Source: Deltaproteobacteria bacterium (GTDB lineage: Bacteria; Desulfobacterota; Deferrisomatia; Deferrisomatales; JACRMM01). From it: a stretch of 54,392 nucleotides of DNA. The stretch spans positions 1 to 54,392 of the forward strand of contig JBBIIA010000010.1 of NCBI GenBank assembly GCA_037446775.1, read 5' to 3'. Position numbers and translations under genes: made by a program. Of this stretch, positions 3,487 to 48,372 are shown piece after piece. Position 1 is the stretch's first letter, and every line of letters begins with the position of its first letter. Under the pieces are notes generated by a model. That model was not told the origin of the DNA, ran no database searches, and saw nothing but the letters and a program-made list of their open reading frames with translations.

Positions 3487-5706
3487 CTACTTGTACTGGT
3501 CCGCCGGCAGGGTGCGGATGGTGGTGTAGCGCTGGAGCTTCTGGCGGGCCCCGGCGATCAGCACCTTCACCCGTTCCGCGAGCTCCTGGGCGAAGCCGTG
3601 GTTGTGCACCGCGTTCCCCTTCACCAGGAGGATCAGGTTCTTCTCGGCGTTGTTTACGTAGTCCTGGGCGTCGTAGGTGTACTGACCCTTCTGGATGGCC
3701 GCTAGGATCGCCCGCTGCACCGCCTCGAGATCGCTCCGGAGGCTTTCGACCGGGATCGCGGCCGCCTTGGCCTTCCAGTCGGCCACCATGGGCCCGTAGC
3801 TGTCGTCGTGGCACTCCACGCAGGTGGCGGTGACCCCCTCGGTGGTGCTGGCCTTGCCGTCGGCGATCTCCACGTGGCACTCGGCGCAGGAGACCCCCTC
3901 GGCCATGACGTTGGGCGTCCCGCGGACGTCGCAGTTCTCCTCGTCGCAGGCGTTCTGCCCGTTGTACAGGTTGTGGTTCTCCACGTGGCAGTCCGCGCAA
4001 GCGACCGCGCCGGCACCCGACCCGTGGTGGCAGTCGCTGCACCCCTTGAGGAAGGTGAGGCCGTGGCGCTCCCGCGGGGTGTGGCAGTCCTGGCAGCCCA
4101 TCCCCTCGTCGTTGACGTGGATGTCATGGGGGAACTGGACGTTCCCGAAGGGCACCGGGGTGGTCTCGATGCACTCCACACAGGAGTGGCACAGCTGGGT
4201 GCACCCGGAGGGGGAGACCACGGCCGCCATCTTGTAGCCCGAAACCACCAGGCTCCGGGCCTTTTCGGCGCGCTCGCGGCAGTCCGCGAGGACCTTCAGG
4301 GCATAATCCATGTTGTGGAGGCCCCGCCCAGCGCGGACGAAGGCCAGGTTCTTCTCCGCCACGTCGAGGAGCTTGGCCGCCTCGGCGGCCCCGGCGCTCC
4401 CCCGGTTCGCGCCCACCTCGCGGCGGGCCGCCCCCAAGCCGTCCTCGGCCCGCTTGAGCTCCTCGGTCAACAGCTTCTTCCAGTGCTCGGCCATGTCGTC
4501 GTACCCGGCGCCGTGGCAGTCAGAGCACGCCTTAATCACGTCCTCGTACTTATGCCGGAAGGAGGTCTGGGTCGTGCCCCCGCTCTCCGTCAGGTAGATG
4601 TGGCAGCTGCCGCAGTCGGCGTGGGCGGCATACATCGGGCTCGGCAGGTCGGCCACCTCGGCGGCCCCGGTGCCGCGGTACATCTGGCTGATGGCGTCGT
4701 GCTTACCAAAGGAGTGGCACTTCACGCAGTTGTCGTCGTAGTGAAAGCCGCTCAAGCCCGCGGGCCGCCGGGCCTTGGCTGGCTTGTCGCCGTAGCGGGC
4801 GATGCCGGGCCGCAGGATGCCGTGCTCGATCTCGGTGTGGCAACGGAAGCACTCGACCTTGAACTGGGTGACGTGCTCCTGGTGAATGATCTCGCTGGTG
4901 AAACGGCTCAAGAGGATCCTGGGCTCGGCGTGGCACTGGACGCAGGAGTTGTCCTTGAGGTGCCCGTCGCCGAACACCACGTCGAAGTGGCACTGCCCGC
5001 ACACCACGCCCCGGTCGAGGTAGTCCTTGTGGACGAAGGGCATGTGCTCGTTGGCGTTGATGTAGATCTTCGCCTTCATCTGCACGTGGCACAGGTTGCA
5101 GTTGGCCAGGGCCGGGTCCTGCTCCTCGCCGTAAAAGTGGCAGATGAAGCAGGTGCTCTCGGTGACGGTGAGGTGGTCCCCCTGGACGATCTGGGAGTGG
5201 CAGGTGACGCACTTGAGCTTCTTGCCCCGCCGCAGTTCCCCCAGGTGGGTGGCGTGGCTGAAGGTCACCCCCTTGAAGGTGACCGGCTCGACCCCAAGGT
5301 CGGCGGTCGAGTGGCAGCCCTGCCGCAGGCAGCTCGCGTCGCTGATCTGGGTGTGGGGCCGGGAGGGGATCTTGCCGGTGATCACCTGGACGATGTGGGT
5401 CTGGGCCTTCCACTTGCCCTTCAGTTCGCCGAGAACCCCGGGCTCGAAGTGGCACGCCAGGCAGCTCACCTCGCGGTGGCTCGACTGCTCCCAGCTCTCG
5501 ATGTAGGTCTGCATGTTGTGGCAGGAGCCGCAGAACTTGGGCGAGGCGGTGGCCTTGAGGGCGACCACGGTGAGCACGATGAGGCCGAGAAACGCGACCC
5601 CGCAAAACACCAGCAGGCCCTTCCAGTGGGCCCGGGTCCCCCGCATCGCTTCCCGAGAGAAGTCCCGCACGAAGTCCCGCAGGAGTCTCCACATCTCCTT
5701 TAGCAT
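3487..5706 (-). CDS. Membrane-anchored multiheme c-type cytochrome (NapC/NirT-like N-terminus, about 16 CXXCH sites)
   Basis: Start chosen at MLKEMWRLL (ATG 5706, preceded by GGAGGAGCGAGG). Has one N-terminal TM helix followed by FCGSCH...CLACH. I counted 16 CXXCH motifs plus CLRQGCH and CTQLCH variants. The 57-aa extension in the track is probably not translated. Confidence 0.9.
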   Translation of the reverse strand: MLKEMWRLLRDFVRDFSREAMRGTRAHWKGLLVFCGVAFLGLIVLTVVALKATASPKFCGSCHNMQTYIESWEQSSHREVSCLACHFEPGVLGELKGKWKAQTHIVQVITGKIPSRPHTQISDASCLRQGCHSTADLGVEPVTFKGVTFSHATHLGELRRGKKLKCVTCHSQIVQGDHLTVTESTCFICHFYGEEQDPALANCNLCHVQMKAKIYINANEHMPFVHKDYLDRGVVCGQCHFDVVFGDGHLKDNSCVQCHAEPRILLSRFTSEIIHQEHVTQFKVECFRCHTEIEHGILRPGIARYGDKPAKARRPAGLSGFHYDDNCVKCHSFGKHDAISQMYRGTGAAEVADLPSPMYAAHADCGSCHIYLTESGGTTQTSFRHKYEDVIKACSDCHGAGYDDMAEHWKKLLTEELKRAEDGLGAARREVGANRGSAGAAEAAKLLDVAEKNLAFVRAGRGLHNMDYALKVLADCRERAEKARSLVVSGYKMAAVVSPSGCTQLCHSCVECIETTPVPFGNVQFPHDIHVNDEGMGCQDCHTPRERHGLTFLKGCSDCHHGSGAGAVACADCHVENHNLYNGQNACDEENCDVRGTPNVMAEGVSCAECHVEIADGKASTTEGVTATCVECHDDSYGPMVADWKAKAAAIPVESLRSDLEAVQRAILAAIQKGQYTYDAQDYVNNAEKNLILLVKGNAVHNHGFAQELAERVKVLIAGARQKLQRYTTIRTLPADQYK

Positions 5707-5975
5707 CCTCGCTCCTCCGCTCACTAAAAATGGAATGGCTCCAAAAAAGCACAGCCGAAGAGGGAATACCACGAAGCGCCCCAGGATTTCAAGCGCCGAG
5801 CGACCCCGGAGCAGGCCAGGGTGAGCCCCTCGAGTCAGGGGTCGCGGCGATCCCCCGAGCCCCGCTCCTGGGGCCAATTCCCCGTGTCAGTTCGGCCGCT
5901 TGACTCCCCTTTTCCCATGGTCTACGGTACTCCTCCCTGGCCCACCCCTCCCCCGCACCGGGAGTCTCGCCCATC

Positions 5976-30343: not shown

Positions 30344-30380
30344 CCTCTACTGACTTTCCTGACAGAATCGGTCCGCGTAA

Positions 30381-30516
30381 GGGGTTTTTTGACAGGATAA
30401 CAGGATAAAAGCAGGATAAATCGGATAAAGTCTTTTGTTTGAGGGCGGCGACACTGGTAGCAGCTACATCAGCCCCACCATCCTGAACATCCTGTTATCC
30501 TGTCAAAACCCCCCCG
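30381..30516. repeat. Intergenic inverted-repeat element, copy 3 (arms only: GGGGTTTTTTGACAGGATAACAGGAT ... ATCCTGTTATCCTGTCAAAACCCCC)
   Basis: Near-perfect, roughly 25-nt terminal inverted repeats around a core of about 85 nt that is AT-richer than its surroundings. The arms are themselves made of CAGGATAA-type direct sub-repeats. Lies between two genes of the hdr/flx cluster. Confidence 0.9.
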
Positions 30517-31542
30517 TCAAATCTTAGACACGTCCTGGACGATCTTTCGGATGTCCAGGTTTACTGGGCAGTTCAAGACGCAGCGGCCGCAGCCGACGCA
30601 GCCGATCAGGTCGAAGTTCTCGGGGATGTAGCGGAACTTGTGCATCACCCGCTGGCGCCAGCGCTCTTTTTGGCTCGACCTCGGGTTGTGGCCCGAGGCC
30701 TCCTTGGTGAAGAGCGGGAACATGCAGGAGTCCCAGCTCCGCAGCCGCACCCCGTCGTCCCCCTTCACCTCGTCGCTGATGTCGAAGCAGTGGCAGGTGG
30801 GGCAGAGGTAGGTGCAGGTGCCGCACGCCAGACACTTGCCGTGGAGCCCCGCCCAGAAGGGGTGCTCGAAGTTCTTCTGGAGGATCGGCTTCACCTCGGA
30901 CGCCGGCACCTGGGAGCGGATCGCCGCCCGGGCGGCCTCGCGCACCTGCTCCTTGCGGGCCGCCGCCTCGGCGCCGGCCGCCGGGCCCTCGAAGAACGAC
31001 AGGAGCGCCGCGCCCTTCTCGGTGAGGAACTCGGCCAGGACTTCTTCCCCCAGGTCGGTGACGAGCACGTCCACCCCCTCGGGGGCCCCGGGGACCGGCT
31101 CGCCCCCCACCGAGGTGCAAAAGCACGCGGCGTAGGGGGGCTGGGGGCACGCCAGGGCGACCACGGTGGCCCGCTCCCGGTGGCCGACGTAGTAGGGGTC
31201 GCGGCAGCCCGGCTGGTCGAACACCCGGTCCAGGAGCAAGAAGCTCTGGGCGTCGCACGGCCGCACCAGGAGCACCGTCTCCGCCGGCTCGTCCCCCTCG
31301 CCAACGGCCTCCACCCCCTTGGGGGTGCGGGTGTAGCGCACCAGGGTCTCGGTGTGGGGAAAGAGGGCGTTCTTCGGGGCGTTGCGGGTGTTGGCGAAGC
31401 CGAGCAGGGGCCCCTGCGACCCGGTTACCGGCCCGAAGACCACGTTGTCCCCGTCCTTCACCGGCCCGAGCACCCGCTTGGCGGCGGCGAGGCGCCGAAG
31501 TGCGTCGCCCAGGCCATCCTTCTTGAGCAGTCGCGTTTCCAT
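30517..31542 (-). CDS. 4Fe-4S dicluster oxidoreductase subunit (AsrA / HydB / FlxB-like)
   Basis: 341 aa from METRLLKKDG (ATG 31542 after GAGGAAA). Ferredoxin motifs CLACGTCTYLCPTC and CVGCGRCVLNCP. The 62-aa extension in the track was rejected. Confidence 0.8.
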   Translation of the reverse strand: METRLLKKDGLGDALRRLAAAKRVLGPVKDGDNVVFGPVTGSQGPLLGFANTRNAPKNALFPHTETLVRYTRTPKGVEAVGEGDEPAETVLLVRPCDAQSFLLLDRVFDQPGCRDPYYVGHRERATVVALACPQPPYAACFCTSVGGEPVPGAPEGVDVLVTDLGEEVLAEFLTEKGAALLSFFEGPAAGAEAAARKEQVREAARAAIRSQVPASEVKPILQKNFEHPFWAGLHGKCLACGTCTYLCPTCHCFDISDEVKGDDGVRLRSWDSCMFPLFTKEASGHNPRSSQKERWRQRVMHKFRYIPENFDLIGCVGCGRCVLNCPVNLDIRKIVQDVSKI

Positions 31543-31565
31543 GGGTTTCCTCGCGCTCGCCGGGG

Positions 31566-32411
31566 TCACAGGAAGATGCCCACCTGGCGCAGCAGCGGCA
31601 TGGGGTCGACGTGGTGATACTTGAGCCACTTGCCGGCGTCGGGGGCGCCCATGGCGAGCCCCATCAGCTCGGAGAAGTAAAAGATCGGCATGCCGTGGGT
31701 CGCCCGCATGTCCAGGTTGGCCATGCACTCGGGGCAGGCGGTCACGATGCAGTTGGCCCCGGCCTCCCGGGCCATGGCCACCAACCGGTCCACCAGCCGC
31801 ACCACCTGCTCGGTGCGGGCCACGGTGAGCGCCCCGCCGCAGCAGTCGGTCTTAAACGACCACGGCCGGGCCTCGGCCCCCAGGGCTTCTACCAGGTGGT
31901 CCATGGACATGGGGTTCTCGGGGTCGTCGAACCGGCAGACCTCGGGAGGGCGGACCAGCAGGCACCCGTAGTAGCTCGCCACCTTGAGGCCGGCGAGCTT
32001 GCGGGTCACCTTCTCCCGGATCGCCGGGAGGCCCACCTGGTTGACGTAAAAGTCCACCGAGTTGGTGATCCCCAGGTCGGCCTTGATCCGGCCCTGGAGC
32101 TCGTTCTCGATGCGGGCCTTCAGCTCGGGGTCGGCCTCAAGGTGGTGCTCGGCGGCCTTGAAGCGGTTGAAGCAGGCGGCGCACGGCACCATCACCTCCA
32201 GGCCCCGCTTCTGGGCGGCCATCAGGTTGCGGGCCGGCAGCACCACCCCCAGCTCGAAGTTGGTGGCGTGGCCCGAGGTGGCGCCGCAGCAGGTCCAGCC
32301 GTCCACCTCCACCAGGTTCACCCCCAGGGTCTTGGAGACCGACTGGATGGACTGGTCGTAGCCCTTGGCCGTGCCGTGCATGCAGCAGCCGGGATAGTAC
32401 GAGACGTTCAA
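31566..32411 (-). CDS. hdrB: Heterodisulfide reductase subunit B-like (two CCG domains)
   Basis: YYPGCCMHG...WTCCGATSG and YYGCLLVRP...DCCGGAL CCG-domain signatures. The TTG start overlaps the hdrC stop (TTGA). Confidence 0.88.
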   Translation of the reverse strand: MNVSYYPGCCMHGTAKGYDQSIQSVSKTLGVNLVEVDGWTCCGATSGHATNFELGVVLPARNLMAAQKRGLEVMVPCAACFNRFKAAEHHLEADPELKARIENELQGRIKADLGITNSVDFYVNQVGLPAIREKVTRKLAGLKVASYYGCLLVRPPEVCRFDDPENPMSMDHLVEALGAEARPWSFKTDCCGGALTVARTEQVVRLVDRLVAMAREAGANCIVTACPECMANLDMRATHGMPIFYFSELMGLAMGAPDAGKWLKYHHVDPMPLLRQVGIFL

Positions 32412-32965
32412 CGCGACTCTCCTTTACCGGGGGCGCCGCGGCCCTTGCGGGGGCGGTCGAAGATCTTGCGCACCTCTTGCTTGCCCTCGACCTTGGGGCC
32501 GAGGATCGGCAGCCGGCCCTTGGCGAACATCGAGAGGCCGATGCCCACGTCGGCGAAGAGGTCGCCGCTCTTCATCTTGTAGGCGCACACCATGAGGGCC
32601 TCGTGGATCCGGCCGTTCTTCTTGATGCTGTCGAGGAAGGCCTCGTGGAACGCGACGACCTTCTTCTCCGCCACCCGAACGCCGCTCTCCAGGGCCATCT
32701 GCCGCAGCACGTCCATCATGCGGGCGATGTCCACCTCGTTGGGGCAGCGCATGGTGCAGGTCTCGCAAGAGACGCACAGCCAAATGGTGGAGCTCCCCAG
32801 CACCTGCGGGCGCTGGTTTTGCTGCACCATCCGCACCACGGCGTTGGGCTTGTAGTCCATGGCGACCGCCATGGGGCACCCGGCGGTGCATTTGCGGCAG
32901 TGGAAGCACCGCTGGAGCGGCGCGCCCTTCACCTGGGCGTTCACGTCTTCGAGAAAGGTGGCCAT
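32408..32965 (-). CDS. hdrC: Heterodisulfide reductase subunit C-like
   Basis: 185 aa. CFHCRKCTAGCP and CVSCETCTMRCP 4Fe-4S motifs with the typical HdrC helical tail. Confidence 0.88.
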   Translation of the reverse strand: MATFLEDVNAQVKGAPLQRCFHCRKCTAGCPMAVAMDYKPNAVVRMVQQNQRPQVLGSSTIWLCVSCETCTMRCPNEVDIARMMDVLRQMALESGVRVAEKKVVAFHEAFLDSIKKNGRIHEALMVCAYKMKSGDLFADVGIGLSMFAKGRLPILGPKVEGKQEVRKIFDRPRKGRGAPGKGESR

Positions 32966-32986
32966 CGCTTGTCTCGCCCTTGATCC

Positions 32987-33994
32987 CTACGGGTTGTAAA
33001 TGAACGCCTCGGGGTCGTCTTCCTTGGCCTCGGCCAGCGCCGCCGGGTCCTCCGCCGAGAGCCCCGCCCTGCGGCCGAACAGCTCCAGCACGTCCTTGTC
33101 GAGCTTCTTGAGGAACCGCCGGAGGTCCACCCCCATGGGGCACACCGCGGTGCAGGACCCGCAGTCCACGCACCGCCCCGCCAGGTGGAAGAGCCGCATG
33201 AACTGGAACACCTGCACGTCGGAGGCGGCCTGGCCGATGCCCACCCACTGGGGCTGGCTCTGTTCGGCGAAGCACGTCCGGCAGTAGCAGGAGGGGCAGG
33301 CGTTGCGGCAGGCGTTGCACCGCATGCACTTGGCCATCTCGGCGGCAAAGCCCTGCCAGCGCGCCTCGGCGGAGAGCTTCTCCACCGCCTCCACCGGGGC
33401 GAACTCGCGGCTGGCGTCGTGGGGCGGGGCCGGTTCGCCGAGCATCACGTCGGAGAAGACCGGGTTGTTGAAGGCGCAGGAGGCGCAGCTGTCGGCCAAG
33501 AGCTCCGCCAGGGGCAGCTCCCGGTTGCCGGCGGCGGTCTCGACGGTCACCGCTCTCGCCCCAAAGGACCCGCCCTGGAGCTCCTCGCTGCCGGCGGCCT
33601 TGAGGAGTTTGCGGCGGTCCACCACCCCGGCGCAGGGGACCCCCAAGACCAGCACCTCGTCCCGGCCGTACTGGCGCTCGTTGAGGTGGATCGCCAGGGA
33701 CCGGGTGGTGCAGCCGGGGGCCACCACGGCGACCACCTTCTTCTTGCGGTCCTCGGGCTTGAGGCGCTTCTGGCTGTCCCGGTGGGCCATCACCTGGTCG
33801 TGGACGTACTTGGCCAGGTTCTGGCCGCAGCCCGGGTTCCACACCAGGCGCGCTACGTCCTCGGCCCGGGTGAGGAAGGCCGGGGTGGCGGTCAGGGGCA
33901 GGGTGCCGTCCTCGAACCCGACCACCACCTGGGCCCGGCCCTCGGCCAAGGCCCGGGCCGCTTCTTCTCGCATCTTCGTCACGATCTTGTCCAC
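32987..33994 (-). CDS. Fe-S oxidoreductase subunit, two [4Fe-4S] motifs (FlxC-like / Hdr-associated)
   Basis: 335 aa. CMRCNACRNACPSC and CVDCGSCTAVCP. GTG start 33994 follows AAGAGG. The N-terminal domain could not be assigned by eye. Confidence 0.7.
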   Translation of the reverse strand: MDKIVTKMREEAARALAEGRAQVVVGFEDGTLPLTATPAFLTRAEDVARLVWNPGCGQNLAKYVHDQVMAHRDSQKRLKPEDRKKKVVAVVAPGCTTRSLAIHLNERQYGRDEVLVLGVPCAGVVDRRKLLKAAGSEELQGGSFGARAVTVETAAGNRELPLAELLADSCASCAFNNPVFSDVMLGEPAPPHDASREFAPVEAVEKLSAEARWQGFAAEMAKCMRCNACRNACPSCYCRTCFAEQSQPQWVGIGQAASDVQVFQFMRLFHLAGRCVDCGSCTAVCPMGVDLRRFLKKLDKDVLELFGRRAGLSAEDPAALAEAKEDDPEAFIYNP

Positions 33995-34026
33995 GACTCA
34001 AACCTCTTGGCACTACAGCGGCTGGT

Positions 34027-34182
34027 GGGGGGAAACCCCACGGGATCCGCAGATTACGCAGATTACGCAGATGAAACCGGATGCGTATGGGGTCGGTGGT
34101 TCCAATCCCATGGTCACCCTTGAACAGCAGTGCATTCGGCGTGTCGTCCCGCCCGGAAGAAATCTGCGAAAATCTGCGGACC
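34027..34182. repeat. Intergenic element with inverted tandem 9-10-mers (CGCAGATTA x3 at 34048..34074; AATCTGCG x2 at 34161..34178)
   Basis: Read directly. Same architecture (direct sub-repeats forming inverted arms around a core of about 85 nt) as the element at 30381..30516, but a different sequence. Fills the mvhD / Fe-S gene spacer. Confidence 0.8.
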
Positions 34183-34194
34183 CGTCGCCCTAGT

Positions 34195-34659
34195 TCACAC
34201 GATCGCGGTAACCGGCTCGTCCAGGCGCTTCACCAGGCGGGTGGCGGGCCCGAGCTTTCGCACCTTGTCGGTGACGCCCTTCACCACCTGGGCGAAGCGG
34301 TCGCCCTCGGAGGCCGACACCCAGGTAAACGACGTCCGGTCGGCCTCGACCCCCACGTAGTCGAGAAAGCCCTTCAATAGGGCGAACTTCCGCCGGGCCG
34401 ACAGGTTCCCGGTGAGATAGTGGCACTCCCCGGGGTGGCAGCCCGAGATGAGCACCCCGTCGGCCCCCTCCTGGAGCGCCTTGACCACGTAAAACGGGTT
34501 GATCCGCCCGGTGCACGGCACCCGGACGATCCGCACGTTGGGCGGGTACTGGATGCGGCTGATCCCGGCGAGGTCCGCCCCGGCGTAGGTGCACCAGGTG
34601 CACACGATGGCGAGGATCTTGGGCTCCCAGGGTTCGGTCTTCGCGGCTGGTTCGGCCAT
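34195..34659 (-). CDS. mvhD: MvhD/FlxD-like [2Fe-2S] electron-transfer subunit (methyl-viologen-reducing hydrogenase delta-subunit family)
   Basis: KILAIVCTWCTYAGADLAG...RVPCTGRINP...ISGCHPGECHY signature. Start taken at MAEPAAK (ATG 34659, GAGG 10 nt upstream). The track ORF begins 24 nt earlier. Confidence 0.88.
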   Translation of the reverse strand: MAEPAAKTEPWEPKILAIVCTWCTYAGADLAGISRIQYPPNVRIVRVPCTGRINPFYVVKALQEGADGVLISGCHPGECHYLTGNLSARRKFALLKGFLDYVGVEADRTSFTWVSASEGDRFAQVVKGVTDKVRKLGPATRLVKRLDEPVTAIV

Positions 34660-34718
34660 GTTCGATATACCTCGATGGTGCATGCTCGATGCTCGATCCG
34701 GGAAGCGAGCCCCCCGTT

Positions 34719-34788
34719 CCCTACGCCCTACTCCCTACACCCTACTCACTACTCGCCATTCGCCATTCACCATTCACCATTCCCTACA
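34719..34788. repeat. Tandem heptanucleotide array of 10 units (CCCTACG CCCTACT CCCTACA CCCTACT CACTACT CGCCATT x2 CACCATT x2 CCCTACA)
   Basis: Read directly, exact period 7. The last unit contains the TAG stop (34784..34786) of the HdrL-like gene. A TGCTCGA x2 doublet lies at 34684..34697. Confidence 0.9.
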
Positions 34789-37700
34789 TCGCCCCAATCT
34801 GCGCCAGGATCTCCTCGTTATTAAACCCGTTGAGGTCCACGGCGTTCATGCGGCAGGAGGAGGTGCAGACCCCGCAGCCCTTGCACAGCACGGTGTTGAC
34901 CACTGCGGCGAGCTCCTTGGGGTCGACGGCGATGGCGCTGTAGGGGCAGTTGATCTCGCACAGCCCGCACGCCATGCACCGCTCCTTAATCACGTACGCG
35001 GTCTTGCCCTCGGCTTCGATGTAGGGCTGGGTGAGGACCGTGGCGGCCCGCGAGACGGCGGCGTTGGCCTGGGTGACACTCTCGTCGCTCATCTTCGGCG
35101 AGTGGGCGAGGCCGCAGACGAAGACCCCGTCGGTGGCAAAATCCACCGGCCGCAGCTTCACGTGGGCCTCCAGGAAGAAGCCGTCCTGGTTGGTGGGCAC
35201 CTTGAGCATCTTGCCGATGTCGGCGTTTTCCGGGTTGGGGGCCACCCCCACGCTCAGTACCACCAGGTCGGCCCCCAGGTGCACCGGCTGGTTTAGGACC
35301 GGGTCGAAGGCCCGCACCGCCACCCCACCCCCCTGGGCAAAGACCTCGGGGCGGCGCTCCTCGTCGTAGCGCACGAACTGGATGCCGAGCTCCCGGGCCT
35401 CCCGGTAGAAGTCCTCCTTGAGGCCGTAGGTCCGCACGTCCCGGTACAGGATGGTGATCTCCCGAGCCGGGTCCGCCTTCTTCAGCCGCAGCGCGTTTTT
35501 AATCGCCTCGCTGCAGCAGTAGCGGCTGCAGTAGGGGTGCTCGGCGGTGCGGGAGCCCACGCACTGGATCATCACCACCCGCTTGATCGCCCCCAGGCGC
35601 GGGTCGTCCTCCCCCAGGGCGCCCTCGAGCTCCCGCTGGGTGACCACCCGCTCGGAGTGGCCGTACAGGTAGTCGGTGACCTCCATCTCCTGGCCGCCGG
35701 CGGCCACGATCACCACCCCGTGGTCGAACTGCCGCTCCCCCTCGGGGGTGGCGACGGTGGTCTGGTAGTTGCCGATGAAGCCGTCGATCTTGTCGGCCCG
35801 GGACCCGGTGTAGACGGTGATCCGGGGGTTCTTGGCCACCTGGTCCAAGAGCTTTCGCAGGTGCTTCTGGGTGTCGAAGCCCTCCAGGGTGAAGTGGAGG
35901 TGGCGGTAGTTGCCCCCGAGCTCGGGCTCCTTTTCGACGATGCAGGAGTCAAAGCCCTGGTCGGCGAGCGTCAGGGCCGCGGTGATGCCCGCGAGGCCGC
36001 CCCCGAGGATCAGGGCCGCCGGGGTCACCGGGAGCTGGCCGGGCTTCAAGGGCTTTAAGTACGCGGACTTGGCCACCGCCATCCGCACCAGGTCCTTGGC
36101 CTTGACGGTGGCCGCCTCGGGCTCGTGCATGTGCACCCAGGAGCCCTGGTCCCGGATGTTGGCCATCTCGAAGAGGTAGGGGTTGAGGCCCGCCTTCTCC
36201 AGGTTCTCCTGAAACAGGCCCTCGTGGGTGCGGGGCGAGCAGGAGGCGACCACCACCCGGGTGAGGTCGTGGTCCCGGATCGCCTCGGCCATCTTCACCG
36301 CCGAGTCCTGGGAGCAGGTGAAGAGGTTGTCGCAGACGAAGGAGACGTTGGGCAGGCCCTTGGCGTACTCGGCCACCCCGGGGACGTCGATCACGCCGCC
36401 GATGTTGATGCCGCAGTGGCAGACGAAGACCCCGACCCGGGGGCCAGTGCCCTGGAGGTCCTTCTCGGCGGGGAGCTCCTCCTCCGCCACCAGGGTGCCC
36501 CGCTGGCTCGCCAAGAGGCCCTGGACGCACGCCGCGGCGCCGCTCGCCTCCATGACCGTCTCGGGGATGTCCTTGGGGCCGCCAAAGGCGCCGCAGACGT
36601 AGACCCCGGGGCGGGAGGTGGCCGCCGGGTTTTCGAGCGAGGTCTGGCAAAAGCCGCTGGGGGTCAGCTCGATCCCCAGGGCCCGGGCGAGCTCGGGGGC
36701 CTCCGCCGGGGGGGTGAGGCCCACCGACAGGACCACCATCTCGAACTCCTCCTCCACCGAGGTGCCGTCCTCCTGGACGTAGGTGAGCAAGAGGTTCTTC
36801 GAGCGCTGGAGCTCCTTGACCGTGGAGGGGATCGACCGGATGTAGCGGATGCCGTAATCCTTCTTCGCCCGCTCCACGAAGCGGTCGAAGTCCTTGCCGT
36901 GGGCGCGGATGTCCATGAAGAAGATGGTCGGCTCCAGGGCCTTGGCGTGCTCCTTGCCGATGATCGCCTCCTTGGTGGCGTACATGCAGCACACCGAGGA
37001 GCACCAGGTGTTGCCGCAGCGCACGTCCCGGGAGCCGACGCACTGCAAGAAGGCGATCTTCTTCGGCTCCTTGCCGTCGGAGATCCGCTGGACGTGGCCG
37101 AAGTAGGGCCCCGAGGCCGAGAGGATCCGCTCGAACTGGACGCTCGTCACCACGTTGGGGTAGACCCCGAAGCCGTACTCCCCAAGCGCCGCCGGGTCGA
37201 AGGCCGTAAAGCCGGGGGCGGCGATCACCGCCCCCACCTGGAGCTCGACGGTCCGGGGCGCGTCGTCGTGGACCACCGCCCGGGCGATGCACGCCTCGAC
37301 GCACTGGTAGCACTCGGAGCACAAGCCGCAGGAGAGGCAGCGCTCGGCCTCGGCCCGGGCCTGGGCCTCGGTCATGGGCTGGATGACTTCGCGGAAGTGG
37401 GTGCGCCGCTCCGCGGGGGGCAGGTGGGGCATGTGGAGCCGGGGGGCCTTGGGGGTCGCGCTCACGTCCCCCGGGTCGGCCAGGTTCTCCTCCCAGTTCC
37501 GGGCCCGGCCTGCGGCCAGGTCTTCGCCCCGCAGGAAGCGGTCGATGGAGACCGCGGCCTCCTTGCCGGCGTTGACCGCCTTGACCACCGTGGCCGGGCC
37601 GGTCACCGCGTCGCCGCCGGCGAAGACGCCGGGCAGGCTGGTGGCAAAGGTCACCGGGTCGGCGTCGATCTGGTTCCACCGGTTGACCACCGCGCCGCTG

Positions 37701-39208
37701 CCGTTGGCGAGAAACGACAGGTCGCACTGCTGGCCGATGGCGGGCACCACCGCGTCCACCTCGAGCTGGAACTCCGAGCCCTTCACCGGCACCGGCCGAC
37801 GCCGCCCCGAGGCGTCGGGCTCGCCGAGCGCCATGCGGACGCACTCGATGGCCCGGACCTTGCCGTTTTCGCCGATGACCCGCACCGGCGCCACCAGAAA
37901 CTCCATGCGGACGCCCTCGTCCAGGGCCTCCTCGATCTCCTCGGGGGCGGCGGGCATCTCGGCCCGGCCGCGGCGGTACAGGCAGACCACGTCCTTGGAG
38001 CCGGTGCGCAGCGCCGTGCGCACCGCGTCCATGGCCACGTTGCCGCCCCCCACCACGGCCACCCGGTTGCCCAAAAAGACCTTCTCCCCGAGGTTGATGC
38101 GCTTGAGGTAGTCGACCCCGTGGACGACCCCCTCCAACTCCTCCCCGGGGACGTCCAGCTTGGCGCCCTTTTGGGCCCCCACCGCCACGAAGACCGCGTC
38201 GTAGTCGCGGCGCAGGTCGGCAAAGGCCACGTCGGTGCCCACCGCGGTGTTGAGGCGGATGTCCACCCCCAGGTCGCGGATCGCCTGGATCTCGGCGCCC
38301 AAGACGTCCCGGGGCAGCCGGTACTCGGGGATCCCCGCCCACATCCAGCCCCCCGCCACCGGCAGGGCCTCGAAGACGGTGACGTCGTAGCCCTCGGCGG
38401 CCAAAAAGTACGCCGCGGTGAGCCCGCCGGGGCCGGCCCCGACGATGGCGACCTTCTTGCCCTGCTTCGCCTTCACCTCGGGCACGTAGCGGGTCTCGGC
38501 CTTCAAGTCCAGGTCGGCCACGAAGCGCTTGAGGTGCATGATGTCGATGGGCTCGTCCACCTCGGCCCGCTTGCAGGCGGCCTCGCAGGGGTGGTTGCAG
38601 ACCCGGCCGCACACCGAGGGGAAGGGGTTCTCCTGCTTGATCAGCTTCAAAGCCTCGGCGTACTTGCCCTGGCCGATCAGGGCTACGTACCCCTGGACGC
38701 TGATGTGGGTGGGGCAGGCGGCCTTGCACGGCGAGGTGCCCCGCTTCTCGATGGCGAAGGCGGCGGGGATGGCCTGGGGGAAGTGGCGGTACGCCGCGGT
38801 GCGGGTGGCCAGGCCGCCGTTGAACTCGTCGGGCCGGGGCACCGGGCACACCTTGGCGCAGTCGCCGCAGCCCGTGCACTTGTCCAGGTCGACGAAGCGG
38901 GGGGCCTGGGCGAGCCGCACGGTGAAGCGGCCGGCCGTCCCCTCCACCGCTTCCACGGTGGCCTGGGTAAGGATCTCCACGTTGGGGTGGCGCCCCACCT
39001 CCACGAGCTTCGGCGACAGGATGCACGCCGAGCAGTCGTTGGTGGGGAAGGTCTTGTCCAGCTGGGCCATGACCCCGCCGATCGAGATCCCCTTCTCCAC
39101 CAGGTAGACCTTCATCCCGGAGTTGGCGAGGTCCAAGGACGCCTGGATGCCGGCGATCCCCGCCCCCACCACCATGACTGCGCCTACGTTTGAGCCGTTC
39201 GTCGACAC
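34784..39208 (-). CDS. HdrL-like giant flavoprotein: HdrA module with an inserted GltD/NfnB-like NAD(P)H module, followed by a second HdrA-like module and a 2x[4Fe-4S] ferredoxin tail
   Basis: Uninterrupted 1509-codon ORF. Start chosen at GTG 39208 (AAGGAAG SD 6 nt upstream), giving 1474 aa. Four dinucleotide-binding motifs (VVGAGIAGI, IVGAGPGGL, VVGGGNVAMD, ILGGGLAGI). HdrA signatures: DKTFPTNDCSACIL, QCVGSRD...CSSVCCMY, GVFVCHCGINIGG, QCVGSRT...CSRYCCS. GltD-like signature: GRVCNHPCEAAC. Confidence 0.9.
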   Translation of the reverse strand: MSTNGSNVGAVMVVGAGIAGIQASLDLANSGMKVYLVEKGISIGGVMAQLDKTFPTNDCSACILSPKLVEVGRHPNVEILTQATVEAVEGTAGRFTVRLAQAPRFVDLDKCTGCGDCAKVCPVPRPDEFNGGLATRTAAYRHFPQAIPAAFAIEKRGTSPCKAACPTHISVQGYVALIGQGKYAEALKLIKQENPFPSVCGRVCNHPCEAACKRAEVDEPIDIMHLKRFVADLDLKAETRYVPEVKAKQGKKVAIVGAGPGGLTAAYFLAAEGYDVTVFEALPVAGGWMWAGIPEYRLPRDVLGAEIQAIRDLGVDIRLNTAVGTDVAFADLRRDYDAVFVAVGAQKGAKLDVPGEELEGVVHGVDYLKRINLGEKVFLGNRVAVVGGGNVAMDAVRTALRTGSKDVVCLYRRGRAEMPAAPEEIEEALDEGVRMEFLVAPVRVIGENGKVRAIECVRMALGEPDASGRRRPVPVKGSEFQLEVDAVVPAIGQQCDLSFLANGSGAVVNRWNQIDADPVTFATSLPGVFAGGDAVTGPATVVKAVNAGKEAAVSIDRFLRGEDLAAGRARNWEENLADPGDVSATPKAPRLHMPHLPPAERRTHFREVIQPMTEAQARAEAERCLSCGLCSECYQCVEACIARAVVHDDAPRTVELQVGAVIAAPGFTAFDPAALGEYGFGVYPNVVTSVQFERILSASGPYFGHVQRISDGKEPKKIAFLQCVGSRDVRCGNTWCSSVCCMYATKEAIIGKEHAKALEPTIFFMDIRAHGKDFDRFVERAKKDYGIRYIRSIPSTVKELQRSKNLLLTYVQEDGTSVEEEFEMVVLSVGLTPPAEAPELARALGIELTPSGFCQTSLENPAATSRPGVYVCGAFGGPKDIPETVMEASGAAACVQGLLASQRGTLVAEEELPAEKDLQGTGPRVGVFVCHCGINIGGVIDVPGVAEYAKGLPNVSFVCDNLFTCSQDSAVKMAEAIRDHDLTRVVVASCSPRTHEGLFQENLEKAGLNPYLFEMANIRDQGSWVHMHEPEAATVKAKDLVRMAVAKSAYLKPLKPGQLPVTPAALILGGGLAGITAALTLADQGFDSCIVEKEPELGGNYRHLHFTLEGFDTQKHLRKLLDQVAKNPRITVYTGSRADKIDGFIGNYQTTVATPEGERQFDHGVVIVAAGGQEMEVTDYLYGHSERVVTQRELEGALGEDDPRLGAIKRVVMIQCVGSRTAEHPYCSRYCCSEAIKNALRLKKADPAREITILYRDVRTYGLKEDFYREARELGIQFVRYDEERRPEVFAQGGGVAVRAFDPVLNQPVHLGADLVVLSVGVAPNPENADIGKMLKVPTNQDGFFLEAHVKLRPVDFATDGVFVCGLAHSPKMSDESVTQANAAVSRAATVLTQPYIEAEGKTAYVIKERCMACGLCEINCPYSAIAVDPKELAAVVNTVLCKGCGVCTSSCRMNAVDLNGFNNEEILAQIGAM

Positions 39209-39359
39209 GGGTTCTTCCTTCGGACTCGGCGTGAAGTCGCTACCGTTCGGGTCTTCGCCCGTCGTGCACGGAGGCACAAGGGCGGGCAGGCCCTGCCTTG
39301 TACTAAACGTCACGGGCCGGAGTCAAGGCCCGCGACGGCGGTCGCCCCCGGTATCCGGT

Positions 39360-43467: not shown

Positions 43468-44841
43468 CTAGTCCAACCGCGGCACCGCACCCGGGGGGCA
43501 GTCGACCCGGGCCCGGGCTTCCTTGAGCTTGAAGCCGGGGCTCCGGGAGCGGGTGTGGCACCCCCGGCACCCCTCGGCCGCGGCGGCCAGGGAGCGGGGC
43601 ATGGGGGCGGCGGGGTGGAGGCTCCCGGGCCCGTGGCACGCCTCGCACTGGACGCCCCCCAGGTCGACGGTCGCCCCCTCGGCCCAGCCTCCCCACTCCC
43701 CGAACCCGGTCACGTGGCACTCCAGGCACTCGGCCCGCCGCCGGTCCCCCGGCGGCAGCCGCTCCAGGGCCCGGGCGTGAGGCTGGGTCCGCCACTGCCG
43801 GTGGGCGTCCGAATGGCACCGCGCGCACTCCCGGGCCGACACGTACAGGGCCCCGCCCTGGCGGACGTTGACCGCCAGTTCCTCTTCGTCCGAGACGATC
43901 CCGTGGGGCACCCGCAGCTTGGCGACGGCGGCAAAGCGGTAGTAGCGGTCGACCAGCCGGCGGACGGCGGGCTCGTCGGGATACTCGGGCTTCATGGCCA
44001 CGAGCCCATGGGTCAGGGCAGCCCGCCCCCCGGGCAAGCCGGTGACGGTGACGTGGCCGAGGTAGCGCCCCAGGTGGGCGACGCTGCCCACCAGCGCCGA
44101 ACCGATCCGCCACGGCAGGCGGACCTTGTCGTCGGGGTCCCCGGCGACCAGGAGGTCCACCTCGTCCACGGTCTTGGCGGCCAACCGAAGCTTCTTGGGG
44201 TCCACCGCCGACAGGACCACCACCAGGTCACACCCGGCGGCCTTCAGCTCCTGGGCGTACCGCTTGATCGCCCCAAAGGTGGGTTCGAGGCGGAAGTCGT
44301 CGCCGAACTCCCGGACCTGCAGGGTCGAGTCGAGGATCCCCACCAGCCCCACCCGAAACCCTCCGGCCCCCACGATCACCCACGGGCGGAACACCGGGTC
44401 CCCCGAGTTGCGGTCGACGAGGTTGGCACACAGGAAGGGAAATCGGGCCCTCGCCTCCAGGGCACGCAAGAACGGCAAACCGGCGGCGAAATCGTAGGGC
44501 CCCAGTCCCATCGCGGCGACCCCGATCTCGTTGTAGGCGTCGATGATGGTCTCCGCCTTGAACCGGAGCTGCTCGGCTTCGATGGGCCGGAGCTGGCTGC
44601 GACCGAAGAGCGCGTTGCCCCCGTCGAGCGCTAGAACCGCCGCGCCCCGCCGCCGGGCATCCTTGACGAAGTGAGCCTTCTTGGCGAGACCGCCAAGTGG
44701 GTTCTGGGCTCACCCGCAGATGCCGACGGTCCCTCGCACCTCCGAGGTGTACACCAGGTGCACGGCCGCGGTCTCCGTCGGCACGACGGCGACCGCTTCG
44801 GAGATCCCGAGGAGCAGCAGGATCAGCAACAGCCACGCCAT
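43468..44841 (-). CDS. Candidate selenoprotein: secreted degenerate 5'-nucleotidase/metallophosphoesterase-like domain fused to a tetraheme cytochrome c; in-frame TGA (44710..44712) read as Sec
   Basis: The ATG 44841 ORF (MAWLLLILLLLGISEAVA signal peptide) continues in frame through one TGA into track ORF 43468..44511. The junction reads ...VRGTVGICG-[TGA]-AQNPLGGLAKKAHF.... The C-terminus has 4 CXXCH sites (CARCH, CLECH, CEACH, CRGCH). The paralog at 44989..46398 has a TGA at the same aligned position. Confidence 0.7.
44680..44697 (-). other. SECIS-like hairpin downstream of the in-frame TGA of the minus-strand paralog
   Basis: CTTGGCG-GTCT-CGCCAAG, a perfect 7-bp stem starting 13 nt after the TGA. 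GGTCT occupies +19..+23. Confidence 0.5.
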
Positions 44842-44899
44842 GGATTTCCTCTCCCGGAGCCAGGTTTTCCTCCTCGCTCCACCCCACGGGTCAGGACCC

Positions 44900-44929
44900 T
44901 TGAACCCTTTATCACAGGTCTGTTATGGT
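44900..44929 (+). promoter_or_regulatory. Possible sigma70-type promoter for the plus-strand paralog (TTGAAC-18 nt-TATGGT)
   Basis: Hexamer matches only. It lies in the 147-bp divergent spacer and is followed by the palindrome TCCCGCG-GT-CGCGGGA (44940..44955), GAGGAG and ATG 44989. Confidence 0.3.
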
Positions 44930-44988
44930 CAGCACGTTGTCCCGCGGTCGCGGGAGAACGCCTATCGCCTTCCCGCCGAGGAGTCAGC

Positions 44989-46398
44989 ATGCGCTCGATC
45001 GCCATGGCCACCCTACTCGGACTCGCCCTCATCGGCCAGCCCACCCGAGCGACGACAACGCCGCCCGCCGGCTTCACCCTGCTGTACTCCGCGGACGAAC
45101 GGGGCGAGATCGAGCCCTGCGGGTGACAGGACAACCCGCGTGGCGGTCTGGCCAAGCGAGCGACGTACATCCAGGGCGTTCGCGCCGAAGGGCGACCCCA
45201 CCTGGTGGTGTCGGCCGGTAACCTGTTGTTTCGCCGGGAGCGGCTGAAGGCGGAGCACCGGGAGGCGGATCGCCTCAAGGCGGACCTGCTGCTCCGGGGC
45301 TACCACCTCACGGGGATCGACGCCCTCAACGTCGGCGCCTACGACCTCTCCCTGGGCGTCGGCTACCTTCGGGCCAAGCAAGCCGAGCACCGCCTCCCGC
45401 TGCTCTCGGCGAACCTCCGCGACGAGAAGGGGAACCTCTGGTTTCGGCCCCACGTCCTCAAGGAGGTCGGGGGCGTCAAGGTGGGCATCCTCGGCCTCAC
45501 CGATCCCCGACTGAAGGTGGACAAGATCCCCGGGGGAGAGCAGGTGCGGGTTCAGCCCCCCCGGGAGAGCGTGGATGCCGCCGTGCGCGAGCTCAAGGCC
45601 CAGGGCGCCACCTACCTCGTGCTCCTGACCGATATGACCAGCCGATCCCTGCGCCGACTCGCCGCCAAGGGGCTCCCCGTAGACGCCATCATCGCCAGCG
45701 ACGAGCGCAACCAGATCGCCTCCCCCTTCTTCCTCGGTCCTACCTACGTGACCCACCTGGACCGGGGAGGCAAGTGCATCGGCCGCCTCGAGGTGGCCCT
45801 GCTCAAGCCCGGGCAGGAGCCACCGCCGGGCACCCTGCGCACCACCGGGCGCCCCGGAGGGGAAGTGGCCTACCGAAACACCTTCGTCCAACTGCGGCTC
45901 TCGATCCCCGACGACCCGATCCTCGGCCCGCTGGTAGCGGCGGTCGCCCAGCGGGTGGCCGAACTCCAGGAGGAGTCGAGCAAGAAGCTCCAGCCGGTGG
46001 CCGACTCCGACTGCGGCAAGCGGTATCTCGGCGCCGGCGCCTGCGTCTCCTGCCACTCGGACCGCCACCGGGGCTGGTCGGCCACCAGCCACGCCCTGGC
46101 GTACACCACCTTGGTCAAGCGCAAGAAGCAGTTCGACGAGGACTGCCTCGCCTGCCACACCTTGGGTTTCGAGTGTGAAGGGGGGTTCTTCGACCCGGAG
46201 AACCTGGGCGGCTTCGCCCACGTCCAGTGCGAATCCTGCCACGGTCCGGGGCAGGTCCACGTGGAAGCCAAGGGCAAGGCCCCCATGCCCACCCGTCGCC
46301 CCTCGGCCGCCGTGTGTCGCCGTTGCCACACCGAGGAGAAGAGCCCGGATCTAGACCTCGCCCGGGCCCGCCTGACGATCTGCCGCCCCGCTCCCTAG
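44989..46398 (+). CDS. Candidate selenoprotein: secreted degenerate 5'-nucleotidase/metallophosphoesterase-like domain fused to a tetraheme cytochrome c; in-frame TGA (45124..45126) read as Sec
   Basis: ATG 44989 follows GAGGAG. Signal peptide MRSIAMATLLGLALIG. Same frame as track ORF 45205..46398. The junction reads ...ADERGEIEPCG-[TGA]-QDNPRGGLAKRATYI.... The C-terminus has 4 CXXCH sites (CVSCH, CLACH, CESCH, CRRCH). Confidence 0.7.
45137..45158 (+). other. SECIS-like hairpin downstream of the in-frame TGA of the plus-strand paralog
   Basis: CGCGTGGC-GGTCTG-GCCAAGCG, an 8-position stem with one mismatch that starts 11 nt after the TGA. GGTCT occupies +19..+23, the same offset as in the other paralog. 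Confidence 0.45.
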
Positions 46399-46500: not shown

Positions 46501-46532
46501 TCGAGGCCCCGGCGTCGCCGCCGGGGCCTCGA
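46501..46532. terminator. Strong GC hairpin between convergent genes (possible bidirectional terminator)
   Basis: TCGAGGCCCCGGCG-TCGC-CGCCGGGGCCTCGA, a perfect 14-bp stem. It lies 5 nt from the stop of the minus-strand CbcL-like gene. There is no clear U-tract, so the terminator function is inferred. Confidence 0.55.
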
Positions 46533-46536
46533 CTCT

Positions 46537-48372
46537 TCAGTGGGCCAAAAACCCCCAGACGATCAAGCCGATGCACAGGAGGCCGATCCCCAGGGCGGTG
46601 AACCCGAAGAGGTGCCCCAGGAGGTCGGCGAGGGGGTGGGTCGGTTTGGCGCGCATCGACTCCAGGGTGCCCTTGGCGCGGAGCCGCTCCACCCAGGAGG
46701 CCCGTTCCTCCCACAGCTCGTACTTCGGCATCCGTCCCTGGAAGATCACCATGTCCATGGGGAACTTACCGGGCCGGAAGTGGGTGTTGAAGAAGTGCAC
46801 CGTGAAGATGAAGCCGGTCGCCAAGAGGGCCTCGTCGCTGTGGACGATGATGGCGACGTTGAAGATCCACCCGGGGAGGACCGCGCCAAACCACTCGGGG
46901 AACCACAGCAGAAGCCCCGAGCCGCCGATGGCGAACATCCCCCAGAAGACCGCCAGGAAGTCGAACTTCTCCCAGTACGTCCAGCGGTCGAAGGTCGGCT
47001 CCTTCCCGCGGCCGAAGAACCACCGGATCATCGCTCCGATGTCCGTCACGTCCCGCCGGTTGGGGAAGAGGGAGTCGGGCCCAAAGAGCTTCTGCCAGAA
47101 GCTCTCTCCGGTCTTCTTGAACAGCAAGTAGTAACAGACGTAGGCGAGGCAGGCACCGAAGTACACGAAGGTGACCACGGCGCACACCCGGTGCCAATAC
47201 CCCGCCATGTGCGGTCCGCCCAAAAGCTTCATGATCGCCGGCGCCCAGGGGGCGTCGTAAAACTTGAGGGGCAGGCCGGTGATGACCAGGCCCAGGAAGC
47301 TCACCACCATCAGAAGGTGCTGCATCCGATCGAACCCGTTGAACCGCCGGTAGGGCCGCAGGGGCTCGTCCACGTGGGGGTGGGCGTAGTGCCCATCCAG
47401 AAGCTTCTGGCAGCGGGCCCAGTAGGCCTTGCGCCACCACAAGAAGGTGTGGAGCCAGAAGACCGCGAAGACCGCCACCAGGAGGCTCGTCATGGCCACG
47501 AAGGTGTAGTACAGGACGGGGTAGTTTTCCTTGTCCCGGTGGTCGGCGTGGGACAGGAACTGGGCGAAGAGCGGCGTCGCGTGGGGGTGGCAGACGGCGC
47601 AGGTCGCCACCACCCGGTCCGGGTGAATGGTCGACTCGGGATCGTCGGCCCGGCGCACCGCGTGGGCGCTGTGGCAGTCGGCACACCCCGCGGCCAGGGC
47701 CGAGCCGAGGGCCTCGACCTTGCCGTGGTAGCTCTCCTCGTAGGTCCTGGAAGCCACCACAAGAACGTCGTTGCGCGCCATCATGGCGGCGTCGGCGTGG
47801 CAGCGCTGGCAGGTCTCGGTGTGGAACTCCCGGCCGGCGTGGGTGTTCTTGTCGGGCACCGGCTCGATGCGGTGCATGCCGTGGCAGTCCGCACAGGACG
47901 CCGAGTCGTTGTTCCCCGCCGCCACCGCCACCCCGTGGACGCTAGCCAGGTAGGCATCGCCGTCGTGGCAGCCGAGGCACTTGTCCACCACGCTCTGCTT
48001 GTTGCCGTCCCACTTCTGGATGGTGTGCACGTCCGAGTGGCAGTCCGCGCACTTGATGTCGTTGAGCATGTGGGCCGAGGCGAAGTGGTCACGCCCCTGG
48101 TTGGGATGGCAGCGGTGGCAGGTGTCCACCTTGTCCTGGGTCCGGGACCCGCAAGTCTCGTGGTCGGCGATGTCGACCACGTCGTAGTGGCAGCTGTTGC
48201 AGGCGTGGCGGCCGTGGGCAGAAGCGGCGAACGCCGCGTAGTCCATCTCCTCGTGGCACTCGATGCACCGACTGTCGTCGATGGTCGCCCACGCCACCGG
48301 CACGCCCCCCAAGAGCAGCAACGCACCCAGGACCCAACTCCCCAATCGTCCCTCGTCCAAACGGATACGCAT
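46537..48372 (-). CDS. CbcL-like fusion: periplasmic nine-heme cytochrome c domain plus integral-membrane b-type cytochrome (HydC/FdnI-like) domain
   Basis: 611 aa with a signal/anchor sequence. Nine CXXCH sites (CIECH, CNSCH, CHRCH, CADCH, CLGCH, CADCH, CQRCH, CADCH, CAVCH). These are followed by 4-5 TM helices with conserved His (e.g. RMQHLLMV, YWHRVCAV, IIVHSDEAL, FTVHFFNTH). Confidence 0.88.
   Translation of the reverse strand: MRIRLDEGRLGSWVLGALLLLGGVPVAWATIDDSRCIECHEEMDYAAFAASAHGRHACNSCHYDVVDIADHETCGSRTQDKVDTCHRCHPNQGRDHFASAHMLNDIKCADCHSDVHTIQKWDGNKQSVVDKCLGCHDGDAYLASVHGVAVAAGNNDSASCADCHGMHRIEPVPDKNTHAGREFHTETCQRCHADAAMMARNDVLVVASRTYEESYHGKVEALGSALAAGCADCHSAHAVRRADDPESTIHPDRVVATCAVCHPHATPLFAQFLSHADHRDKENYPVLYYTFVAMTSLLVAVFAVFWLHTFLWWRKAYWARCQKLLDGHYAHPHVDEPLRPYRRFNGFDRMQHLLMVVSFLGLVITGLPLKFYDAPWAPAIMKLLGGPHMAGYWHRVCAVVTFVYFGACLAYVCYYLLFKKTGESFWQKLFGPDSLFPNRRDVTDIGAMIRWFFGRGKEPTFDRWTYWEKFDFLAVFWGMFAIGGSGLLLWFPEWFGAVLPGWIFNVAIIVHSDEALLATGFIFTVHFFNTHFRPGKFPMDMVIFQGRMPKYELWEERASWVERLRAKGTLESMRAKPTHPLADLLGHLFGFTALGIGLLCIGLIVWGFLAH

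Follow-up and report, generated by a model that had tools for sequence, protein, structure and literature searches.

The locus described here raises the question of whether an in-frame TGA codon ends a short peptide or encodes selenocysteine (Sec) within a longer exported protein. The window, i.e., the whole stretch of 54,392 nucleotides (nt) that was analysed, is contig JBBIIA010000010.1 (assembly GCA_037446775.1) of a Deltaproteobacteria bacterium from the order Deferrisomatales, a placement that the best protein matches and their taxonomy also make probable. Its plus strand displays two open reading frames (ORFs), 44671..45126 and 45205..46398, which a sequence-only reading by a model had joined into a single probable selenoprotein gene starting at ATG 44989. 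According to that reading, the ORFs share one frame and are parted only by the TGA at 45124..45126, with the upstream piece carrying a Shine-Dalgarno motif, the start codon and a signal peptide, and the downstream piece carrying four CXXCH sites. It also pointed to a paralogue whose own TGA aligns with this one, to a hairpin resembling that of Escherichia coli fdhF, and to the use of TGA as an ordinary stop elsewhere in the window. Our analysis supports the selenoprotein reading on four grounds: the score against a curated family, the occurrence of either Sec or Cys in this alignment column, the uninterrupted genes of the Cys-type homologues, and an RNA-level constraint specific to genes with TGA. 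We conclude that UGA 45124-45126 almost certainly specifies selenocysteine, and that the product is a periplasmic protein with four haems.

A UshA-like gene with an internal TGA

Translation of 44989..46398 (plus strand) yields a complete coding sequence of 469 codons, in which the sole internal stop is TGA 45124-45126 and the terminal stop lies at 46396-46398. The two listed ORFs are offset by 534 nt (3 x 178) and therefore share a frame. The TGA is codon 46, the last of the Cys44-Gly45-Sec46 codons TGC GGG TGA (45118..45126), and its context is YSADERGEIEPCG-TGA-QDNPRGGLAKRATYIQ, i.e., EIEPCG-TGA-QDNPRGGLAKR. A Shine-Dalgarno-like GAGGAG, read off the sequence at 44978..44983, stands 5 nt upstream of ATG 44989. 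The first codons (44989..45051, plus strand) encode MRSIAMATLLGLALIGQPTRA, which by eye resembles a signal peptide, probably of the Sec (secretion) type and with an approximate cleavage site. Comparable N-terminal signal or lipoprotein leaders were found in the family homologues, and export of the protein is implied by the four CXXCH sites in the downstream piece (residues 352, 386, 414, and 443). The division of parts between the two ORFs is thus as the sequence-only reading described it.

Profile searches, run with Cys written in place of TGA, assigned the gene to NF041198, the "UshA-like (seleno)protein" family (UshA_like_PCGU). The plus-strand gene scored 346.1 bits and the paralogue 304.4 bits, and both values exceed the curated cut-off (275 bits). 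The alignment to this model crosses the TGA (residues 13-273 of the plus-strand protein), and the profile positions matched in the whole protein are 8-269 and 354-516 of 519. The C-terminal 171 residues alone align to positions 354-516 of 519, which indicates that the curated family already takes in the four-haem part. The Pro-Cys-Gly-Sec/Cys motif, which in this family follows the first beta-strand, is present in the plus-strand gene as EIEPCG-TGA, and the paralogue reads ICG-TGA. The UshA-like/COG0737 CxU selenoprotein family was first reported by Zhang and Gladyshev in 2008, in the Global Ocean Sampling (GOS) selenoproteome (PMC2398784). A 2022 review places it under COG0737 (PMC9312934), and a 2026 review gives NF041198 as its accession (PMC13188914). 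In the literature searched, no function is stated for the UshA-like CxU/NF041198 family. A second model, NF049981 (UshA-like family 2), displays a weak likeness across the first ~85 residues of the window protein. Its motif is CxxU rather than CxU (PMC13188914), and membership was rejected, as the two scores (38.6 and 22.3 bits) fall below its cut-off of 140. These results support the view that 44989..46398 is a mis-annotated member of a catalogued selenoprotein family, so that what is called for is an annotation fix and not the description of a new kind of system.

The column occupied by the TGA was then read across the family. When a collection with a single genome for each species was scanned, relatives turned up at more than 500 sites, and 80 loci were read in frame at the DNA level. 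Together with the two window genes, the 84 family genes in the scanned loci make up a set of 86, from 78 species-level genomes plus the window. The column holds TGA in 47 of these genes, TGC or TGT in the other 39, and nothing else, just as the sequence-only reading had expected of true homologues. The Cys-Gly-Sec/Cys motif occurs in 78 of the 80 loci, a figure that is partly built into the search pattern. That reading had also named halves consistently encoded as separate genes as an observation that would speak against it; the Cys-type homologues are single uninterrupted genes. In protein searches, close relatives were 41-84% identical and nearly all ~400 residues long, covering ~85% of the query, as results from gene callers halting at the TGA. 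More distant relatives of full length read EPCGC at the Sec column.

The TGA itself recurs across assemblies and genera. It is present in the NCBI assembly of a near-identical strain, in which the next-but-one codon differs (QENP vs QDNP), and also in a Logan assembly. A copy of the gene is carried by assembly GCA_037439625.1. The orthologue from the cultured genus Deferrisoma (locus L083, 7722-9071, GCA_054681715.1) has the same TGA, and its frame runs upstream through the codon as MRIFALALLLAC...ILPCG-U-KKNPRGGLAKR, with an identical hairpin sequence. RefSeq holds only the downstream piece of this gene, a "multiheme c-type cytochrome" of 356 residues (P0049), and public gene calls likewise split the plus-strand gene of the window into products of 45 and 397 residues. 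A literature search found no account of Sec use in Deferrisoma in the papers and supplementary tables covered. Collectively, the Sec/Cys column, the unbroken Cys-type genes and the repeated TGA leave no room for an error of sequencing, for a nonsense mutation confined to one lineage, or for a pair of separate genes.

Two further observations were made during this survey. In six Planctomycetota loci (L043, L045, L046, L062, L063, and L068) the family is represented by tandem paralogues ~1.5 kb apart, the upstream copy with TGA and the downstream copy with TGC or TGT, i.e., a natural Sec/Cys pair inside one genome. Meanwhile, a contig labelled as a Thermoplasmata archaeon metagenome-assembled genome (MAG) (L005, QMSR01000145.1) has a family gene that in its N-terminal region is nearly identical to one from a Thermodesulfobacteriota MAG (L004), and this contig is likely mis-binned.

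Next to the plus-strand gene, across an intergenic region of 147 bp, lies its divergent NF041198-family paralogue (43468..44841, minus strand; ATG 44841, stop 43468-43470). The two proteins are 34% identical. The paralogue reads VRGTVGICG-TGA-AQNPLGGLAKKAHF (VGICG-TGA-AQNPLGGLAKK), with Ile-Cys-Gly-Sec in place of Pro-Cys-Gly-Sec. Its TGA (44710-44712) falls in the same alignment column as that of the plus-strand gene, with conserved flanks (CG-U-xxNPxGGLAK), in agreement with the sequence-only reading. No such divergent pair was found in the other Deferrisomatales loci (L003, L006, and L083). This pair of Sec paralogues is the local peculiarity of the window, which otherwise presents no essential difference from NF041198.

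The genetic code of the organism offers no alternative explanation for these codons. In the window 22 of the 41 called genes end with TGA, which is the commonest stop there, so the code is not reassigned, in line with the sequence-only reading. A scan of the window for in-frame TGA codons returned, besides the plus-strand gene, only the paralogue and two ordinary gene junctions. The window also encodes a heterodisulfide-reductase/Mvh-like cluster (29477-39313, minus strand), comprising a 1509-residue HdrA-like flavoprotein/ferredoxin fusion, an MvhD/FlpD protein, CCG-domain and 4Fe-4S proteins, and an NAD/FAD-binding subunit. Proteins of the Hdr/Mvh type are often selenoproteins in related bacteria; no protein of this cluster has an in-frame TGA. 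Inside the HdrA-like ORF, ARAGORN called a doubtful 92-nt tRNA-Pro(GGG) (37751-37842, minus strand). This is not a tRNA-Sec, and it is probably a false positive; at gathering score, Rfam detected no tRNA at these positions.

The hairpin after the codon

A SECIS-type (selenocysteine insertion sequence) hairpin, CGCGUGGC[GGUCUG]GCCAAGCG, occupies 45137..45158 on the plus strand. It starts 11 nt past the UGA, its apical loop spans 45145-45150, and GGUCU takes up nt 22-26 if the count begins at the U of UGA. The fdhF SECIS of E. coli, which the sequence-only reading described as having GGUCU at the same offset, was quoted correctly there. The text matches at 100% over 47 nt in each of the three fdhF matches listed, is covered to at least 80% in 5,420 of 5,426 genomes, with an identity of 99% or higher in nearly all, and its GGTCT falls at nt 22-26. 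The two elements are alike in that both hairpins begin ~11 nt past the UGA and both present GGUCU at nt 22-26. They differ in the stem, which in the window lies in the codons for R-G-G-L-A-K-R and contains a G.A mismatch. The fdhF SECIS carries a bulged U. Other clades of the family display different hairpins from this fdhF-like one, with GGC or GGA loops at nt 25-34.

The paralogue has its own hairpin, CUUGGCG[GUCU]CGCCAAG (44680-44697), in which GGUCU has the same offset from its own UGA (nt 22-26). This hairpin is stronger than the plus-strand one, and the 52-nt stretch from the paralogue UGA that includes it folds at -17.8 kcal/mol (z = -1.7).

Comparison among homologues provided insights into how the plus-strand hairpin is maintained. 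The consensus of the 12 closest orthologues forms a hairpin identical to 45137-45158, at -10.4 kcal/mol. These orthologues are only ~45% identical at the protein level, and in them the hairpin is near-invariant at the nucleotide level. The codons GGC-GGT...GCC-AAG are invariant in all 12, and Gly codons elsewhere display an entropy of 1.5 bits. We measured codon entropy at conserved residues over the 13 codons following the UGA and compared it with that elsewhere in the genes. For the closest orthologues, which have Sec, entropy after the codon was 0.67 vs 1.29 bits elsewhere (p = 6e-4), or 0.70 vs 1.55 bits (p = 8e-5) when 4- and 6-fold degenerate codons were considered. The Sec genes of Blastocatellia behaved likewise (0.28 vs 0.94 bits, p = 2e-5), and those of Acidobacteriota (L014-L027; 0.87 vs 1.22 bits, p = 0.075) and Planctomycetota (0.73 vs 0.96 bits, p = 0.17) followed the same trend without reaching significance. 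Meanwhile, synonymous variation was not lowered in the Cys genes of Gammaproteobacteria (1.69 vs 1.27 bits, p = 0.98), Blastocatellia (0.90 vs 0.91 bits, p = 0.47), or Planctomycetota (1.39 vs 0.99 bits, p = 0.98). Thus, the reduction is significant in two Sec clades and absent from the Cys clades.

The structure of the helix points in the same direction. In an alignment of 18 sequences, 81% of the helix cells can pair, vs 10-47% with slid partners. Three helix pairs display changes on both sides, and the covariation score was reached by none of 500 shuffles. A short loop with G as its first base was seen in 37 of 47 Sec genes vs 12 of 39 Cys genes. The matched contrast between Sec and Cys clades is the pattern that a SECIS would predict, and we consider this comparative evidence, drawn from sequences, convincing. 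In bacterial Sec decoding, SelB with Sec-tRNA(Sec) is recruited to the ribosome by a SECIS hairpin. By this mechanism, the hairpin at 45137-45158 would recruit SelB with Sec-tRNA(Sec), and Sec would be inserted at codon 46.

Domains, neighbouring genes and a possible redox role

The N-terminal domain of the plus-strand protein (45070..45807, residues ~28-273) is a degenerate metallophosphoesterase of the UshA/SoxB-like type. It matches the SoxB and UshA NCBIfam models at E values of 1e-10 to 1e-17, far under their cut-offs, and 5'-nucleotidases in the PDB at E ~1e-16, and it is homologous also to cyclic-nucleotide phosphodiesterases. Pfam Metallophos (PF00149) and the 5'-nucleotidase C-domain (PF02872) found no match in this protein. 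In an alignment with true 5'-nucleotidases (P0108, P0109, and P0118), metal motifs I-V are all replaced: DxH by DER, GD by GN, GNHE by GAYD, the His of motif IV by Asp, and GHxH by SDER. The protein shares with UshA/5'-nucleotidase and SoxB the fold of its N-domain, including the GGLAKRA helix and the SAN motif, but unlike them it has lost the metal ligands, has four haems in place of the nucleotide-binding C-domain, and has gained a Cys-Gly-Sec loop after motif I.

The sole Pfam match is to PF13435 (E = 2e-10), a cytochrome c554-like tetrahaem domain at 46021..46368 (plus strand) that contains the four CXXCH motifs (46042-46056, 46144-46158, 46228-46242, and 46315-46329) and matches cytochrome c554 in the PDB (1bvb and 6i5b). 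No solved structure of any NF041198 family member was found in a PDB search. Residues invariant in the 86 genes are G39, C44-G45-C/U46 (required by the search pattern), G52, G77, and N142, along with the four CXXCH motifs and only two further His, H368 and H424. With two such His for four haems, at least one haem lacks a conserved distal His. In other proteins the same c554-like tetrahaem module was observed fused to thioredoxin, AhpC-TSA or Redoxin domains (P0089, P0097, P0110, P0112, P0115, and P0119), which suggests that the pairing of a haem module with a thiol-based redox domain is recurrent.

Multihaem cytochromes are found near the family gene in the window and in other genomes. Downstream and convergent lies a gene of CbcL-like architecture (46537..48372, minus strand), whose 611-residue product combines nine CXXCH motifs with about five membrane segments after them, towards the C-terminus. 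Its homologues adjoin the family gene in 8 loci. The architecture matches that described for CbcL, a quinol oxidase (PMC6295460), and on this likeness the 46537..48372 product is a candidate link to the quinol pool. Between the two convergent genes, GC-rich arms of 14 bp form a perfect inverted repeat around a 4-nt loop (46501..46532), which is terminator-like but has no T run; the GC content of the window is 71%. A scan for consensus promoters and terminators called nothing, this repeat included. Meanwhile, a NapC/NrfH-type multihaem cytochrome adjoins the family gene in 11 loci and is encoded divergently from it in Deferrisoma (L083, 5221-7458). The window has a NapC/NrfH-type membrane-anchored cytochrome that is 61% identical to the Deferrisoma gene, with 16 CXXCH motifs (3487..5877, minus strand). 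It is 39 kb from the selenoprotein gene, and its translation probably begins at Met58 of the ORF as listed.

Among analogues, only MccSep/ExtKL of Geobacter sulfurreducens (GSU2937-GSU2936, NF040886) has been characterised by experiment. It is a pentahaem selenoenzyme, shown in 2026 to be the polysulfide reductase of sulfur respiration, and its reduction of polysulfide and selenite relies on a Sec and a Cys that ligates haem (PMC13510729). Both MccSep and the window protein are periplasmic multihaem c-type selenoproteins that gene callers split at the UGA, and in both a Cys and a Sec are likely the catalytic pair. MccSep occurs in sulfur- and metal-respiring Thermodesulfobacteriota. The likeness is one of function only, by analogy, as MccSep is unrelated in sequence and fold, has its five haems in an N-terminal cap, and carries its Sec in a C-terminal Ig-like domain (DGUP). 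Membership of NF040886 was rejected for the window protein, whose Sec is N-terminal and whose CXXCH motifs number four; this model was absent from the NCBIfam matches of the window proteins at E up to 0.01.

The lost metal ligands, the two conserved His for four haems, the thioredoxin-type fusions, the cytochrome neighbours and the MccSep precedent suggest that the protein may be a redox enzyme with a haem-wired Cys/Sec centre, whose substrates, by analogy with MccSep, are possibly compounds of sulfur or selenium. True 5'-nucleotidases have their active site between two domains, in a cleft that faces the C-domain. The Cys-Gly-Sec loop would sit in this former active-site cleft, facing the haem domain that replaced the C-domain, and Cys44 and Sec46 could form a redox-active chalcogen centre fed by the four haems. 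Electrons might be exchanged with the quinone pool via the membrane multihaem cytochromes (CbcL-like and NapC/NrfH-like), and the substrate would be a periplasmic sulfur or selenium compound. More speculatively, the PCG-U family could represent a second, independently evolved haem-Sec chalcogen reductase (for polysulfide, selenite or related compounds) built on a dead 5'-nucleotidase scaffold. We offer this as a tentative idea that may well prove wrong. If it applies, the Cys44-Gly-Sec46 loop would face the haem lacking a conserved distal His, Cys might ligate that haem, and the electrons would be supplied by quinol dehydrogenases of the CbcL-like or NapC/NrfH-like type.

Competing readings of the codon and the protein

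We are confident that the locus holds one periplasmic selenoprotein gene of the NF041198 family, recoded with Sec, whose product would have a haem-wired Cys/Sec redox function. Several results weigh against this assessment. The window contains none of selA, selB, selD or tRNA-Sec (37 larger ORFs of the 41 called genes were scanned). The entropy comparisons between clades are not phylogenetically independent, their shared ancestry being uncorrected. Rfam returned no match at gathering thresholds in the whole window and none of relevance near the site at E up to 10. The best-hairpin energies of Sec and Cys genes were not separated (p = 0.38), and the single-sequence folding energy of the plus-strand hairpin is unremarkable (z = +1.0). 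The hairpin claimed by the sequence-only reading hence exists at 45137..45158, is conserved, and is constrained only in genes with TGA, but its folding energy is not distinctive, and thermodynamics alone would not be convincing. As for function, no universal neighbour of the family emerged across 81 loci, and the catalytic role is drawn from analogy alone, with no substrate indicated.

Three other accounts of the codon can be set against Sec insertion. If the TGA were a true stop, the locus would be a decaying pseudogene, or it would encode a 45-residue peptide and a separate cytochrome starting at GTG 45205. This is how public callers treat it, with their products of 45 and 397 residues and the RefSeq label "multiheme c-type cytochrome" in Deferrisoma, and TGA is after all the commonest stop codon of the window. 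We nevertheless regard a true stop as very improbable, because the TGA stands in the same column of 47 genes from many phyla with the protein conserved on both sides, the NF041198 alignment spans the codon, RNA-level constraint acts 3' of it, and the downstream piece has neither a start context nor a signal peptide despite its four CXXCH sites. Alternatively, the UGA could be read through by a near-cognate tRNA inserting, e.g., Cys, Trp or Gly, in a genome without Sec machinery. The lack of Sec-machinery genes in the window would suit such readthrough, as would the 39 homologues in which Cys is functional at the column. Against it stand the conserved hairpin, the fdhF-like GGUCU at a SelB-compatible distance, synonymous constraint specific to the TGA clades, the curation of the family as a selenoprotein (PMC13188914), and the presence of two such genes side by side, and we judge readthrough without Sec to be unlikely by a wide measure. 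An error of sequencing or assembly would need only a one-base difference (TGC or TGT to TGA). Nothing specific speaks for it, and with the TGA present in two further assemblies (one of them with a neighbouring codon change), in the paralogue and in 45 other genes, its probability is negligible.

A different objection concerns the protein and not the codon. The gene could encode an active hydrolase (a 5'-nucleotidase, a phosphoesterase or a SoxB-type enzyme) in which Sec is incidental and the haems are accessories. The homology of the N-domain to UshA, SoxB and cyclic-nucleotide phosphodiesterases is what one would expect of such an enzyme, but all five metal-binding motifs are altered, the haem domain stands in place of the substrate-binding C-domain, Pfam detects neither Metallophos nor the 5'-nucleotidase C-domain, and the scores fall far below the cut-offs of those families. 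We therefore give a functioning hydrolase very little credence, and favour a Sec-containing redox protein in its place.

These findings have implications for both the annotation and the biology of the family. Public records present three of these genes (the plus-strand gene, the divergent paralogue and the orthologue from Deferrisoma) in split or truncated form, which indicates that pipelines still miss members of a curated selenoprotein family. Meanwhile, the combination of a Cys-Gly-Sec/Cys loop, a dead phosphoesterase fold and four haems, together with the MccSep precedent of 2026, gives this family a concrete hypothesis of function that is open to testing.

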